From a bacterium (lineage in GTDB: Bacteria > Patescibacteriota > CPR2 > UBA1875 > JAJYID01), in the NCBI GenBank assembly GCA_021787535.1, contig JAJYLR010000001.1, positions 492,321 to 556,320 on the forward strand: a stretch of DNA of 64,000 nt. Direction: 5' to 3'. Made by a program: the position numbers and the translations under genes. Under the pieces are notes generated by a model, which was not told where the DNA came from, did no database searches, and saw nothing but the letters and a program-made list of their open reading frames with translations. Shown here one piece after another: positions 6,668-61,326 of the stretch (the first letter of the stretch is position 1; each line of letters starts with the position of its first letter).

Positions 6668-6946
6668 ATGGTTACTTTTGTCGGCCTTATAGCGTCAATC
6701 TTAACAGCAAGCGGGCTCGTACCGCAGGTGGTTAAAGGATTTATCAGAAAAAAAGTTGAAGATGTTTCCATGCTTTTTATTGTAATAGGCGGAGTCGGTA
6801 CGTTTCTGTGGTTTGTCTATGGTATATTAATTATGAACGGAGTAATCATCTTTGCAAACTCTATTAATGCCACCTGTTATGCTCTAATGTTTTTGCAAAA
6901 GGGAATTTATAAAGAAAGGGTGATGGAATGTCAAAAAACAACCTAA
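6668..6946 (+). CDS. SemiSWEET/PQ-loop family small membrane transporter (3 TM)
   Basis: 92 aa, three hydrophobic helices, GLVPQVVK PQ-motif in TM1; overlaps scpB start by 19 nt. Confidence 0.55.
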   Translation: MVTFVGLIASILTASGLVPQVVKGFIRKKVEDVSMLFIVIGGVGTFLWFVYGILIMNGVIIFANSINATCYALMFLQKGIYKERVMECQKTT

Positions 6947-7446
6947 AATCACAAATCGAAAGCCTGCTGCTTGCCTCCGGGAAGCCTATTTCTTTAAAGG
7001 AAATGGCGCATATCATTGGACAAAGCATGGCCGATATTCAAAAAGAGATTAATTCTTTGACTCAAGAATATAGGGAACGGGGGCTTCGCATTATCAAACA
7101 AGGCGAGAGTTACTTCATGACAACAGCCGGAGAAAACGCGGAAACAGTCGCCAAATTTTTAAATGAGGAGTTGCGCTATGAACTGTCGCCGGCGGCGCTT
7201 GAAGTTCTGGCAATCATAGTTTACAGGCAGCCGATTACCAGATCGGAAATAGAGAATATTCGCGGTGCCGACTCGTCCAAACCACTCAGAACTTTGATGA
7301 TAAGAGGGTTGATTTGTGAAACCGGGCGAAAAGACGCTCCCGGCCGGCCAATTCTATATGGCACAACGGTGAAAATGATGACATATCTGGGAATAGAAGA
7401 CGAGGGACAACTGCCAAAGCTAGAAGAAGTATTACCAGCAACCTAA
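6928..7446 (+). CDS. scpB: segregation and condensation protein B
   Basis: SLLLASGKPISLKEMAHIIG ... tandem winged-helix ScpB pattern. Confidence 0.85.
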   Translation: MSKNNLKSQIESLLLASGKPISLKEMAHIIGQSMADIQKEINSLTQEYRERGLRIIKQGESYFMTTAGENAETVAKFLNEELRYELSPAALEVLAIIVYRQPITRSEIENIRGADSSKPLRTLMIRGLICETGRKDAPGRPILYGTTVKMMTYLGIEDEGQLPKLEEVLPAT

Positions 7447-9156: not shown

Positions 9157-9188
9157 AGTGGTACACTAGACTAGTCTAGTGTACCACT
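9157..9188. promoter_or_regulatory. perfect 32-bp palindrome AGTGGTACACTAGACTAGTCTAGTGTACCACT (candidate operator/structured element)
   Basis: sequence equals its reverse complement over 32 nt. Confidence 0.4.
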
Positions 9189-10299: not shown

Positions 10300-11727
10300 A
10301 TGTACAAAGTAGCACTGATCGGAAAACCAAACGCCGGGAAAAGCACTCTTTTTAACACTTTGCTTAAAAAGAGACAAGCTATTACCACAAATATACCCGG
10401 CACAACCCGCGACTGGAACGAAGAAGCCGCTTCTTTTGATGGCTCCCAATTTATTCTAGCCGATACGGCCGGCATAGAGCTAAAAGTTCCGAAAGGCGAC
10501 GAACTGAAAGAAAAGGCCTATAAGAAAATCCGGCAAAACTTAAGCACAGCTGATCTTTTTATTTTTGTGGCAGATAGAGAAACCGGTATCACAGAAGAAG
10601 ACCGAAAAATTATTAAAGAAGTCAGAAAATATGGCAAAGACATCTTGCTTGTCGTAAATAAAATTGACAGCCCGAGGAATAAGCCATCTTTGGCAGAGTT
10701 TCATAAACTGGGACTCGGCGAACCGCTTGGGGTCTCAGCCGAGCATAAAAGGGGAATCGAAAATCTTTTGAATGAGATACAGAAACGAATTCCTTCTCCT
10801 GTCATCCCGAGCGAAGCCGAGGAATCCCTTATTAATCGAGAGAGAAATGGATTTCTCCATTCGTCACTCCTTGATGTCAGTCGAAATAACAAAGAGATCA
10901 AGGTGTCTATTCTTGGCCGGCCAAATGCCGGGAAATCATCGTTTCTAAATAAACTGATTAATGAAGAAAAGTTCATCGTCAGCGATATACCGGGTACTAC
11001 GAGAGACGTGAATTCAACTTATCTCGATCATGAAGGCCAGGTAATTAAATTTCTAGATACAGCAGGTCTCAGGCGCCGGGGCAAGATAGGCAAAATGCCC
11101 GGTAAAGGCAAGGAGGGTCTCATAGAAAAGTTCTCCGCTGACCGTGTCAGAAAAACCTTGGAAGAGTCCGACATCGCGCTTTTAGTTCTAGATCCGACCG
11201 AACCGATAACTTCACAGGATCTGCACGTGGCGGGCTATATCAAAGATGCGTATAAGGGAATCATAGTAGTTGTAAATAAATGGGATCTGGCAAAGGAAGA
11301 AAAGCTGGCTCACGGATATGATACGGTTGAGAAGTTTTCTCGCCTCGCTCAGCATAAACTCGACTTCCTGCCGTATGCGCCTATCATTTTTGTTTCTTCG
11401 CTGACCGGTAAAAACGTTTCCAAAGTTTTGGATCTTATTCTGGAAATCAAAAAAAGACGAGAACAAAAGATTCCTACCAGCGATTTAAATAGTTTATTAA
11501 ATGAGTCAATGGCTAGAAAGAAGCCGCAAAGCGTAGATAAACATCAGGTCAATATAAAATACGCCACGCAAACAGGCGTAAACCCTCCAGAGTTTATATT
11601 CTTTGCAAACTATCCTCAAAAAGTGCATTTTTCATACCGCCGATTTCTGGAAAACCGCATTCGGGAAAAGTGGGGCTTCACCGGTACCCCGATAAGAATT
11701 ATTTTCAAATCAAAAAGTAAGCCATAA
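10300..11727 (+). CDS. der: ribosome-biogenesis GTPase Der (EngA), tandem GTPase domains + KH-like domain
   Basis: two P-loops GKPNAGKST and GRPNAGKSS, DTAG motifs, NKxD (NKID/NKWD). Confidence 0.9.
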   Translation: MYKVALIGKPNAGKSTLFNTLLKKRQAITTNIPGTTRDWNEEAASFDGSQFILADTAGIELKVPKGDELKEKAYKKIRQNLSTADLFIFVADRETGITEEDRKIIKEVRKYGKDILLVVNKIDSPRNKPSLAEFHKLGLGEPLGVSAEHKRGIENLLNEIQKRIPSPVIPSEAEESLINRERNGFLHSSLLDVSRNNKEIKVSILGRPNAGKSSFLNKLINEEKFIVSDIPGTTRDVNSTYLDHEGQVIKFLDTAGLRRRGKIGKMPGKGKEGLIEKFSADRVRKTLEESDIALLVLDPTEPITSQDLHVAGYIKDAYKGIIVVVNKWDLAKEEKLAHGYDTVEKFSRLAQHKLDFLPYAPIIFVSSLTGKNVSKVLDLILEIKKRREQKIPTSDLNSLLNESMARKKPQSVDKHQVNIKYATQTGVNPPEFIFFANYPQKVHFSYRRFLENRIREKWGFTGTPIRIIFKSKSKP

Positions 11728-11732
11728 AAGTC

Positions 11733-11760
11733 TTGACAATCTCTTCACTTAGTGTATAAT
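11733..11760 (+). promoter_or_regulatory. consensus sigma70 promoter TTGACA-N16-TATAAT
   Basis: read directly. Confidence 0.5.
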
Positions 11761-11836
11761 ATAATGTCTGGTGAGAAAAGTATGGAAGCTTAACTCACCG
11801 GGCACGTACCTGAAAATCACTACCCAAGGAGGGGTC

Positions 11837-12097
11837 ATGAGTAAAACTGAAAGGTTTTGGGCAATCCTCGGTGCGGTCGGTCGAGGACTTTGGTGGTGTT
11901 TCAGACACCCAAAAGAGACGGCCGCCTCGCTCATAATATCCTTTTTCCTTTTAACTCTTTTCGTTAGCATCTTCTCTGAAAATTTAGCTAACGAAATCTT
12001 CGGTCGGGTATTATACACGATCGGAGTCCCTGTGATTATTAGCATTGCGCTATATATGATCATTGCAGGGAAGAAACCGGGGAAAAAGAAGGATTGA
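11837..12097 (+). CDS. hypothetical small membrane protein (86 aa)
   Basis: ATG with perfect AAGGAGG SD 6 nt upstream; two hydrophobic helices; lysine-rich C-terminus. Confidence 0.45.
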   Translation: MSKTERFWAILGAVGRGLWWCFRHPKETAASLIISFFLLTLFVSIFSENLANEIFGRVLYTIGVPVIISIALYMIIAGKKPGKKKD

Positions 12098-12191
12098 TGA
12101 ACCCAAAAACCAACCACAATCATGGACGGCAGAGATTTTATTGGTATCTTATACCTCTAATTCTCTCGCCGTCCTTTCTTTTGAAAAAGTA

Positions 12192-12220
12192 TTGACAAAT
12201 ATTTTTTATGATGTATAATG
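12192..12220 (+). promoter_or_regulatory. consensus sigma70 promoter TTGACA-N17-TATAAT
   Basis: read directly; drives GC-rich non-coding region. Confidence 0.55.
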
Positions 12221-12226
12221 GTAATC

Positions 12227-12587
12227 ATTGTTTGGTGTTTTACTGAGCCCATTGTCACGAAAAGAGAATCCCGAATTTCAAAAAAAGAACGTGAGTTTGA
12301 TAAGATGCCAAACATGACCTTTACACTTTCTCCTCAGTTCTCGGCGCCTCGCCGCCGCTTTGCGTTTATGCGTTCAGGGGGCGCAGGATGAAAAAAATAA
12401 GTCGAGAAGGAGAGGAGAAAGAAGCAGCGATTTTTCCGCGGAGAATCGCTGCGAGCAGTGGGAATTTTGGCAACATGAAGTCGACCGCCAATCTCACTGC
12501 ACCTCGCAAGGGATAGTTTATTTATCTGCACATGGCGGATAAATTGTTCTTGCGGGGCGAAAGGGGCGCATATGCGCCCCTTTTTTT
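12227..12587 (+). ncRNA. candidate structured non-coding RNA (~360 nt), unidentified class
   Basis: bounded by consensus promoter and strong terminator; locally GC-rich (>55%) in AT-rich genome; multiple complementary segments (CTTTCTCCTC/GAGGAGAAAG; GCAGCGATT/AATCGCTGC 9-bp stem); no convincing ORF. Confidence 0.35.
12563..12587 (+). terminator. rho-independent terminator
   Basis: 18-bp perfect palindrome GGGGCGCATATGCGCCCC followed by TTTTTTT. Confidence 0.8.
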
Positions 12588-12588
12588 A

Positions 12589-12617
12589 TTTACTTGGATT
12601 AGCCAAAACGATAAAAT
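12589..12617 (+). promoter_or_regulatory. putative promoter TTTACT-N17-TAAAAT, leaderless (ATG 7 nt downstream)
   Basis: read directly. Confidence 0.35.
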
Positions 12618-12624
12618 ATTAATT

Positions 12625-13245
12625 ATGAAAGTAAAAACGCTTATAGTAGGATTAGGAAATCCGGGTGAAAAATACGAAAAAACCCGACATAATGCAGGAT
12701 TTATGGTGCTGGACGTGCTCTGCAATAATTTTAAATTTGAAAAAAAATTTAATGCGGAAGTTTGCCGGCTCTCCTCCTGTCATTCCCGCGAAGACGGGAA
12801 TCTAGATTCTGAACAAGCCAGAATGACAAATGAAGGAGATATTATTTTGATGAAACCCCAAACCTTCATGAATTTATCAGGCGAGGCAGTCCAATCTTTT
12901 GCCGGTTATTACAAGATTCAACCAGGAAATATTTGGATAATCCACGATGATATAGATATTCCGTTTGGAGAAATTAGAGTGAAAAAAGGCGGTTCTTCGG
13001 CCGGACATAAAGGAGTTCAGTCGATAATTGAAAAAATGGGCACAGAAGATTTTTGGAGGTTTCGAGTTGGCGTTAAAAATAATGATTTAGCAAGAATAGA
13101 AACTGAGGATTTTGTACTGCAAAGATTTAACCCTGATGAAGCAGGAGTTTTGGATAAAATAATAAATTTAGCTGCAGATGAAATAAAACTGTTTTTAAAG
13201 GAGGGAACACTTGAGGCAAAAACTCTAAAATTGAATAAAAAATAA
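12625..13245 (+). CDS. pth: peptidyl-tRNA hydrolase (with in-frame palindromic-repeat insertion)
   Basis: MKVKTLIVGLGNPGEKYEKTRHNAGF ... KPQTFMNLSGEAV Pth signature; ~20-aa insert CRLSSCHSREDGNLDSEQARMT encoded by repeat 12779..12827. Confidence 0.85.
   Translation: MKVKTLIVGLGNPGEKYEKTRHNAGFMVLDVLCNNFKFEKKFNAEVCRLSSCHSREDGNLDSEQARMTNEGDIILMKPQTFMNLSGEAVQSFAGYYKIQPGNIWIIHDDIDIPFGEIRVKKGGSSAGHKGVQSIIEKMGTEDFWRFRVGVKNNDLARIETEDFVLQRFNPDEAGVLDKIINLAADEIKLFLKEGTLEAKTLKLNKK
12779..12827. repeat. compound palindromic repeat GTCATTCCCGCGAAGACGGGAATC + TAGATTCTGAACAAGCCAGAATGAC inside pth
   Basis: two family members fused; in frame. Confidence 0.7.
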
Positions 13246-13348
13246 GAAGAGAGCATAAAACTCTCTTCTTATTTTCAAAAAATCTCCCATTGATCAACAT
13301 CTGTCACGGAGACTTAGCCAAGTCACTGCCCATAGGCTGACTGGTGTG

Positions 13349-13436
13349 TTGTAGGGAGAAACCTACCAACAAGCAAGCAACTTAAAGGAGGGTGATTTAA
13401 GAAAGCTGAACTTGTTAGTAGGTTTCCGCCCTACAA
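13349..13436. repeat. long imperfect inverted repeat (25-bp arms, ~37-nt loop containing AAGGAGG)
   Basis: TTGTAGGGAGAAACCTACCAACAAG vs CTTGTTAGTAGGTTTCCGCCCTACAA. Confidence 0.45.
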
Positions 13437-13540
13437 AATCCCGCACCAAAAGGACTTTGAAATCCTTTCTTAGGTACGATAGAACATATTAACATATTAA
13501 AGTACTTATGTCAATACTTTTTTAATAAAACTCATGTTTT

Positions 13541-18413: not shown

Positions 18414-18447
18414 AGTTCATTTGATTTAAAATTTATCAAAAAAACAT

Positions 18448-18477
18448 TTGACATTTGAACTTGAGTTGTGCTATAAT
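18448..18477 (+). promoter_or_regulatory. consensus sigma70 promoter TTGACA-N17-(C)TATAAT
   Basis: read directly. Confidence 0.55.
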
Positions 18478-61164: not shown

Positions 61165-61263
61165 TTTTTACTCCTTTAACCCTTATTTGTAAGGATTTTA
61201 ATAAATCTAAGCTTATAATAGCTTAACATAAACATATTACAATACTTTTTTTGGATTTGAAAA

Positions 61264-61289
61264 GGGCCGGCGCGCATGCGCGCCGGCCC
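61264..61289 (-). terminator. GC-rich rho-independent terminator (26-bp perfect palindrome)
   Basis: GGGCCGGCGCGCATGCGCGCCGGCCC followed on minus strand by TTTTCAAATCCAAAAAAAG. Confidence 0.65.
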
Positions 61290-61326
61290 TTAGGCGAGAA
61301 TATGTTACTTTCTCACCTTGTTACTT

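Follow-up and report, generated by a model that had tools for sequence, protein, structure and literature searches.

A candidate multi-hairpin RNA in the hypervariable der-pth spacer of an uncultured, Patescibacteria-like bacterium

INTRODUCTION

The Staphylococcus aureus RNAIII is a dual-function regulatory RNA, which also encodes delta-haemolysin. Here we describe an element of similar general plan, located between the genes der and pth in a 64-kb stretch (the window, to which all positions refer unless a relative is named) of a 635,771-bp contig, JAJYLR010000001.1, from a low-GC uncultured bacterium. The der-pth interval is made up of two compact transcription units, of which the element is the second, starting ten bases after the first. 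Like RNAIII, it is a stand-alone series of hairpins of several hundred nucleotides with an embedded short open reading frame (ORF), a strong promoter, and an intrinsic terminator. However, it shows no sequence or Rfam similarity to RNAIII, has no C-rich apical loops capable of pairing with Shine-Dalgarno (SD) sequences, and is not set in a quorum-sensing context; moreover, its embedded ORF, which we term p42, codes for a hydrophilic product and is a candidate only.

Two other groups of bacterial RNAs offer comparable anatomies. The CsrB/RsmZ RNAs, like the element, are hairpin chains of about 350 nt with their own promoters and terminators, but the repeated GGA loop motifs are absent from the element, which has no Rfam match. 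A CsrB/RsmZ-like sponge was rejected as a candidate, since GGA occurs seven times against 6.5 expected and only one occurrence is unpaired. The mRNAs of type I toxins (hok, tisB, and zorO) share with the element a small ORF, an SD sequence sequestered in the fold, and a position beside a membrane protein gene in a variable islet; they differ from it in that p42 is hydrophilic, both units of the islet lie on the same strand, and there is no antisense partner. A type I toxin-antitoxin arrangement was likewise rejected: complementarity to the neighboring mRNA reaches at best 28 nt at 71%; its AU-rich core measures 10 bp, and about 0.15 such cores would be expected by chance.

A more general point of comparison is the GC-rich intergenic region (GC-IGR) approach of the Breaker laboratory, which seeks noncoding RNAs (ncRNAs) where an AT-rich genome has long intergenic regions of high GC content (PMC6429828, PMC8632094, PMC11109978). 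On a plot of length against GC content, the intergenic region housing the element is the longest internal one in the window and among the most GC rich (0.43 versus a typical 0.30 to 0.38), and tRNA-bearing intergenic regions occupy the same zone. In contrast to the element, the candidates from that approach were accepted only once homologues had been analyzed for covariation (PMC6429828, PMC8632094, PMC11109978).

The window has an overall GC content of 0.40. Searches with Der and Pth identify the nearest relatives of the host as metagenome-assembled genomes labelled Patescibacteria group or candidate division WS5; even the closest homologues are only 57 to 59% identical for Der and at most 66% for Pth. 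We propose that the segment specifies an independently transcribed, lineage-specific, highly structured RNA, probably one with a trans-acting role and perhaps with a dual function; we hold this reading to be about evenly balanced between being right and being wrong.

RESULTS

Promoter and terminator signals delimit the element

A preliminary description of this DNA had proposed a GC-rich, noncoding segment of about 360 nt running from a perfect promoter to a strong terminator. All 12 positions of the promoter hexamers indeed match the sigma-70 consensus; the spacer, first given as 17 nt, measures 16 nt, so that the site spans 12192-12219. Such perfect sites (TTGACA-N16-18-TATAAT) occur three times in the 64 kb, against 0.03 expected by chance, and the other two precede the gene for an 86-aa membrane protein (11733) and a sigma-factor-like gene (18448). 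An extended motif, AAAAAGTATTGACA, is common to the promoter at 12192 and to the clade-invariant promoter of a neighboring minus-strand RNA described below. At the other end, the 18-nt palindrome previously noted is the GC core of a perfect 12+12 palindrome of 24 nt (AAAGGGGCGCAT/ATGCGCCCCTTT, 12560-12583), with the T7 tail at 12581-12587. From these signals, RNA polymerase would be expected to start near 12226 and to stop at the terminator (12559-12587), yielding a transcript of about 360 nt.

The GC richness holds over 12300-12500 (0.50 to 0.53, against 0.31 to 0.37 in the flanks), but it does not extend over the whole 360 nt as previously described: the transcript opens with ~90 nt of AT-rich sequence (GC content, 0.32 to 0.41). 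As in intrinsically terminated small RNA genes, the promoter and the Rho-independent terminator have the same orientation and lie between protein genes, and a stable fold is specific to the transcribed strand. With respect to the promoters themselves, we observed that the strong ones here carry an A-tract (AAAAAGTnTTGACA) abutting the -35 hexamer in the manner of an UP element (11726-11738, 12185-12197, 13514-13526 on the minus strand, and 18441-18453), and that the strong promoters of this genome have TG just 5' of the -10 hexamer.

A chain of hairpins specific to the transcribed strand

Folded as a 367-nt plus-strand RNA, the element has a minimum free energy (MFE) of -149.3 kcal/mol, compared with -105.7 +/- 5.8 kcal/mol for dinucleotide shuffles (z = -7.5), and none of 100 shuffles was as stable. 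The full-length reverse strand reaches -116.2 kcal/mol (z = -4.2). With the terminator excluded, the plus strand has a z score of -7.8 and 19 G-U pairs among 111, against -1.8 and 6 G-U pairs for the minus strand. The controls, same-length pieces of the relatives' der-pth gaps and of coding sequence, gave z scores of +1 to -4 and a small strand difference. In a scan of the 64 kb with 200-nt folds, 12401-12600 ranks first on the plus strand. The fold is also well defined, the pairs of the MFE structure having a mean probability of 0.90.

The transcript is predicted to fold into a linear chain of six consecutive hairpins (H1 to H5 and the terminator hairpin; Table 1), separated by gaps of 1 to 2 nt from H2 through the terminator; the only longer linker is the 9 nt between H1 and H2. 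The internal complementarities reported earlier, CTTTCTCCTC/GAGGAGAAAG (12326-35/12412-21) and GCAGCGATT/AATCGCTGC (12424-32/12444-52), are each borne out at 100%. G-U pairs become C-A mismatches on the opposite strand. The strand asymmetry and the G-U pairs, in the same orientation as the promoter and terminator, therefore point to structure at the level of RNA rather than to DNA palindromes. Accordingly modeled, the structure appears to be an RNA property of the transcribed strand and to be maintained there.

The sequence ACAUG occurs three times in the element (12311-12315, 12473-12477, and 12530-12534), and two of the copies fall within the apical loops of H4 and H5, which are neighboring hairpins. 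Through CAUG, which is self-complementary, a loop-loop contact or dimerization could form, although the pattern is not statistically compelling.

Table 1. Coordinates of the element, of its flanking units, and of related features. Positions are those of the window except in the last three rows, which refer to the sequences of relatives. MITE, miniature inverted-repeat transposable element.
Feature	Position	Strand	Description
First islet unit	11733-12182	+	Perfect promoter 11733-11760; 5' untranslated region; 86-aa ORF 11837-12097; terminator-like hairpin 12124-12174 with U-rich tail
Sigma-70-type promoter	12185-12219	+	A-tract; TTGACA 12192-12197; 16-nt spacer; TATAAT 12214-12219; 12/12 consensus matches
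H1	12226-12316	+	5' hairpin, long, imperfect, and AU rich; full fold gives it 30 pairs; folded by itself, it has 8 G-U pairs; z = -2.7 (+ strand), +0.3 (- strand); mean pair probability 0.84
Linker ACCUUUACA	12317-12325	+	9 nt, single-stranded; unpaired probability > 0.7
H2	12326-12421	+	96 nt; closing helix CUUUCUCCUC/GAGGAGAAAG; inner GC-rich helix; A-rich internal loop 12390-12400; z = -4.3; pair probability 0.92
p42 (candidate ORF)	12376-12516	+	SD-like AGGGGG 12376-12381; ATG 12388; TAG 12514-12516; 42 codons; MKKISREGEEKEAAIFPRRIAASSGNFGNMKSTANLTAPRKG
H3	12424-12452	+	13-bp hairpin, 3-nt loop; z = -4.9; pair probability 0.97
H4	12455-12500	+	14-bp hairpin; 15-nt apical loop with ACAUG; loop 12472-12482 unpaired; z = -3.5; pair probability 0.99
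H5	12502-12557	+	23-bp hairpin, 5 G-U pairs; apical loop with ACAUG; z = -6.2 (+ strand), -3.7 (- strand)
Terminator hairpin in fold	12559-12584	+	Sixth hairpin of the chain
Intrinsic terminator	12559-12587	+	11-12-bp GC-rich stem, 4-nt loop, T7 tail
pth with own promoter-like site	12589-13245	+	TTTACT-17-TAAAAT; -10 TAAAAT 12612-12617, 7 nt before ATG 12625
Clade-conserved small RNA gene	13238-13514	-	Promoter TTGACA-N17-TAATAT (13514-13486); ~240 nt; terminator with covarying stem
MITE-like copies, L081	1548-2013
MITE-like copies, L095	1340-2510
MITE-like copies, L004	3813-3881

The element as a unit separate from pth

The candidate had been described as adjoining pth, and the identity of Pth is confirmed by PF01195. 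The promoter-like site of pth lies downstream of the terminator, and exactly 7 nt separate the end of its -10 hexamer from the ATG, both in the window and in five related lineages, L002, L003, L004, L082, and L095 (TATAAT). The start of pth is not preceded by an SD sequence (anti-SD duplex, +0.3 kcal/mol). The fixed spacing therefore indicates a conserved leaderless message, and pth appears, from its sequence, to be expressed in this form. In two further lineages, L001 and L096, only 85 to 110 nt separate der from pth; pth therefore needs no element upstream of it. Judged by these signals, the element is a unit separate from pth. A T-box, riboswitch, or attenuator leader of pth was rejected as a candidate, given the -10 hexamer of pth itself and the lack of a match to any leader family.

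In four of the relatives, the -10/ATG sites of pth are at ~6855-6878 (L002), ~6915-6935 (L003), ~6938-6957 (L004), and ~2505-2533 (L082). The public Pth call (233 aa, P0001; 12544-13245) takes a TTG within H5 as its start and therefore runs across the terminator; the homologues and the conserved promoter place the true start at the ATG at 12625, giving a protein of 206 aa.

A candidate small protein within the element

Only short, unconvincing ORFs had previously been noted. Most of the short ORFs do score as noncoding, but p42, which went unmentioned, combines a strong SD sequence with gene-like codons. Its codon usage score of 0.207 per codon is within the range of true genes and is exceeded by only 1.4% of noncoding frames. 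Its anti-SD duplex (-9.4 kcal/mol), located 6 nt before the ATG, beats those of 96% of the gene starts in the window and is in the top 1.3% of random positions. Thus, a ribosome-binding site at the right spacing and gene-like codon usage are both present, as in genes for small proteins, although the purine-rich composition may inflate the two scores.

A search of p42 against 1.84 billion representative proteins returned two weak matches, one to a repeat protein and one that could not be aligned, neither of them credible. None of the ORFs of the element has a match in Pfam or PHROGs. No further contig came up in exact look-ups of p42 and of a 65-aa ORF on the minus strand. A search with a concatenated six-frame pseudo-protein also gave no match, but it missed the known 32-aa overlap with P0001 and is not a valid negative. 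No gene is called at p42 in the public assembly; small ORFs are under-called in databases.

Comparison with known RNA families

At gathering thresholds, the Rfam 15 covariance models recover only five tRNAs in the window and none in the element, and ARAGORN finds no transfer-messenger RNA (tmRNA) in the window. The scan at E <= 10 likewise ended without a family match, in agreement with the preliminary statement that signatures of RNase P, tmRNA, T-box, and signal recognition particle (SRP) RNAs are missing. The unmatched families include RNase P RNA, tmRNA, SRP RNA, 6S RNA, T-box, riboswitches, OLE, raiA, ROOL, GOLLD, and HEARO.

The der-pth spacer and its cargo

The genes of the region are ordered D-Ala-D-Ala carboxypeptidase, der (10300-11727), pth (12625-13245), dprA, and topA. 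Nine lineages, found via their Der and Pth homologues, were compared at the der-pth site (L001, L002, L003, L004, L082, L083, L084, L095, and L096). The spacer is a hypervariable hot spot, ranging from 85 nt to ~1.3 kb and holding unrelated orphan cargo in each lineage: none in L001 and L096, Cys-rich small ORFs in L003 and L082, a gene remnant in L002, a 206-aa ORF in L083, a 272-aa ORF in L084, and two small ORFs with MITE-like palindromes in L095.

In the window, the first unit of the islet codes for an 86-aa membrane protein with two helices (11837-12097), preceded by a strong SD sequence. This protein has no homologue among 5.8 billion proteins except itself and the copy of a sister strain, and it is absent from IMG/VR. 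The sister strain, L094 (ENA ERZ27237541), is 94 to 95% identical in nucleotide sequence across the 3' end of der and the 86-aa gene, within which the two strains differ by 11 synonymous and 5 nonsynonymous codon changes. The pattern of changes indicates that this is a real gene under purifying selection, and the islet is therefore not junk. The contig of the sister strain (583 nt) ends 19 nt past the 86-aa gene, before the element.

A conserved small RNA in the pth-dprA spacer

About 700 nt from the element and without sequence similarity to it, the spacer between pth and dprA harbors a small RNA gene on the minus strand. Its ~240 nt barely vary among seven lineages with a protein identity of only about 60%, and its promoter is invariant; it is listed also for L001-L004, L081, L084, and L091-L093. 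The fold has a z score of -9.6 and includes a rod-like hairpin of ~88 nt with an apical loop, UCACCCUCC, that resembles the 3' end of 16S rRNA (anti-Shine-Dalgarno). This RNA has no Rfam match, and its core was found in only three JGI metagenome contigs; it is therefore restricted to a rare clade.

The two RNAs share the AAAAAGTATTGACA promoter motif and an anatomy of a 5' hairpin, adjacent hairpins, and a terminator. They differ in that the neighbor is nearly invariant and carries an anti-SD-like loop, whereas the element has no detectable relative. As a novel ncRNA, the neighbor has far stronger support than the element under study. It also serves as a positive control: the shared promoter motif and anatomy show that signals like those of the element mark genuine small RNA genes in this clade.

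Palindromic sequences in the window

A MITE-like palindromic family (GTCATTCCCGCG...CGGGAATC...ATTCTG...CAGAATGAC) is present inside pth (12779-12827) and der (~10805-10890). These insertions are in frame, adding ~16 to 30 residues to Pth and Der, and the family is also seen in intergenic regions of the relatives (Table 1). Two further intergenic segments of the window are strongly structured: one with a perfect 32-nt palindrome (AGTGGTACACTAGACT/AGTCTAGTGTACCACT, 9157-9188) directly upstream of the carboxypeptidase gene and one with a GC-rich 30-nt palindrome (61262-61291).

DISCUSSION

The element is an orphan bacterial small RNA or small-ORF transcript, and its status as noncoding RNA, dual-function RNA, or mRNA of a small protein is that of a candidate. 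Our preferred reading, a structured RNA acting in trans, is carried by the promoter and terminator signals, the computed thermodynamic structure and its strand asymmetry, the independence from pth, and the absence from known families; transcription itself, action in trans, and any specific partner are inferred. The transcript would act as a structured regulatory or protein-binding RNA, and it may carry the 42-codon ORF as well. Its likely points of contact are the few segments left exposed, namely, ACCUUUACA between H1 and H2, the A-rich internal loop of H2 (12390-12400), and the ACAUG loops of H4 and H5.

Several results weigh against this reading. Across 4227 Rfam models at E <= 10, only look-alikes of terminators were seen, the best of them, STnc40, at 26 bits against a threshold of 45 and on the wrong strand. 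With blastn, nhmmer, and tblastx, no relative of the element was detected at the syntenic der-pth site of the nine lineages; in phage and plasmid collections, blastn yielded a single chance match of 41 nt; and pattern scans of IMG/VR gave none, or two chance matches in coding sequence. The JGI metagenomes, which were scanned with exact patterns only, contain no match to one pattern of 28 specified bases (H2-H3), a search that distant homologues would escape. As no homologue was found, there is no covariation or conservation evidence, and by the preliminary description, which took the lack of both a transcript and conservation as telling against such an RNA, the case is unproven. No target, partner, or recurring loop motif has been established for the element. 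Finally, p42 lies inside H2-H5 with a strong SD sequence and gene-like codons, and the transcript could be a plain mRNA. Set beside these results is the thin sampling of the lineage, in which the nearest Pth is only 66% identical; the absent conservation therefore says little.

The last of these points leads to a rival explanation that we regard as rather unlikely, namely, that the transcript is mainly the mRNA of a basic, hydrophilic protein of 42 residues (12388-12516), with a structured 5' untranslated region of 162 nt in which the inner helix of H2 sequesters the SD sequence. The hairpins would then tune translation and stability and not be the functional product. The strength and spacing of the AGGGGG duplex and the gene-like codon usage speak for it, as do the noncoding scores of the other frames of the same DNA, the predicted unpaired state of the start codon and the A-rich codons that follow, and the small orphan ORFs that relatives have at the same site. 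Against this, the lack of a credible homologue, of a Pfam or PHROG match, and of a public gene call is compounded by chance and composition: in 365 nt, chance alone should yield an ORF of 42 codons, and the purine-rich tract inflates both the SD and the codon scores. Moreover, the ORF crosses three very stable hairpins (H3-H5), and the G-U strand asymmetry spans them, features that a plain coding sequence would not usually show. The hypervariability of the spacer raises a different possibility, that the segment is nonfunctional or decaying inserted DNA (a palindromic or MITE-like cluster or a dead gene) whose promoter and terminator are leftover or fortuitous. The cargo differs in every lineage, MITE-like palindromes and a gene remnant included, the element has no relatives anywhere searched, and the genome has active palindromic elements, some of them lying in frame within der and pth. 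Yet no part of the element has a second copy in the 64 kb, it lacks the GTCATTC...GAATGAC termini of the MITE family, and tblastx finds no protein similarity to the der-pth gaps of the relatives. A strand-asymmetric, G-U-rich fold is unexpected for DNA palindromes, the promoter is a perfect consensus with the extended motif of the lineage, and the genome is small and compact, with purifying selection on the adjacent gene of the islet. In our estimate, this explanation is quite improbable. A cluster of repetitive extragenic palindromes (REP), bacterial interspersed mosaic elements (BIME), or MITEs in particular was rejected: the element is single copy within the 64 kb of the 635-kb contig, its fold is strand asymmetric, and the clade family (GTCATTCCCGC...GCGGGAATGAC) differs in its termini.

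Two further explanations assign the element to a known type of function. The position of its end, 37 nt before the start codon of pth, would suit a cis element of that gene, either a long leader with a regulated terminator (an attenuator, riboswitch, or T-box-like device) or a stack of hairpins insulating the leaderless promoter from read-through. Relatives, too, have GC-rich terminator hairpins directly upstream of the pth promoter, and the sequence GGGGCG(C/A)A, present three times, could allow alternative pairings with an arm of the terminator. This is nonetheless highly doubtful in view of the -10 hexamer of pth itself, whose distance of 7 nt to the ATG is constant in six lineages, and of the relatives in which the gap is 85 to 110 nt and no such element is present. 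At E <= 10, none of the T-box or riboswitch models gives a match, the perfect 12-bp GC-rich terminator stem with its T7 tail is not accompanied by a convincing antiterminator, and an insulator would need no consensus promoter of its own. Patescibacteria-like lineages have divergent RNAs, and a length of ~360 nt fits the sizes of RNase P RNA and tmRNA; the element might then be a highly divergent universal RNA of similar size (RNase P RNA, tmRNA, 6S, or SRP RNA) missed by the models. We find this scarcely credible. Not one of the 4227 Rfam models responds at E <= 10, and ARAGORN reports no tmRNA; the linear string of hairpins has no multihelix junction, and its ends do not pair with each other. 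A universal RNA would, in addition, be kept in relatives, whereas the syntenic sites lack the element and, in L001 and L096, there is practically no space between der and pth.

Returning to the preferred reading of a structured RNA that probably acts in trans, a more specific version can be offered as a tentative possibility, one that we would sooner doubt than affirm: the element may found a new class of large multi-hairpin RNAs, restricted to its lineage, in a WS5- or Patescibacteria-like host. It may be dual-function, with both a structure-gated peptide of 42 residues and an RNA scaffold being active, and it may have been acquired jointly with the orphan membrane protein, the two forming an islet of two units at the hypervariable der-pth site.

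As long as the element is an orphan, it permits no generalization, and its value hinges on transcript data or a second sequence. We judge the by-products of the analysis to be more useful: the consensus sigma-70 promoters with A-tracts in this clade, the apparently leaderless pth, and the neighboring small RNA, which, with its anti-Shine-Dalgarno-like loop, is already open to comparative study. More generally, regulatory RNAs are barely known from the reduced genomes of Patescibacteria-like bacteria. If the reading is true, a strongly expressed, structured RNA of 360 nt kept in a 0.6-Mb genome would provide a rare handle on lineage-specific regulation in these organisms.

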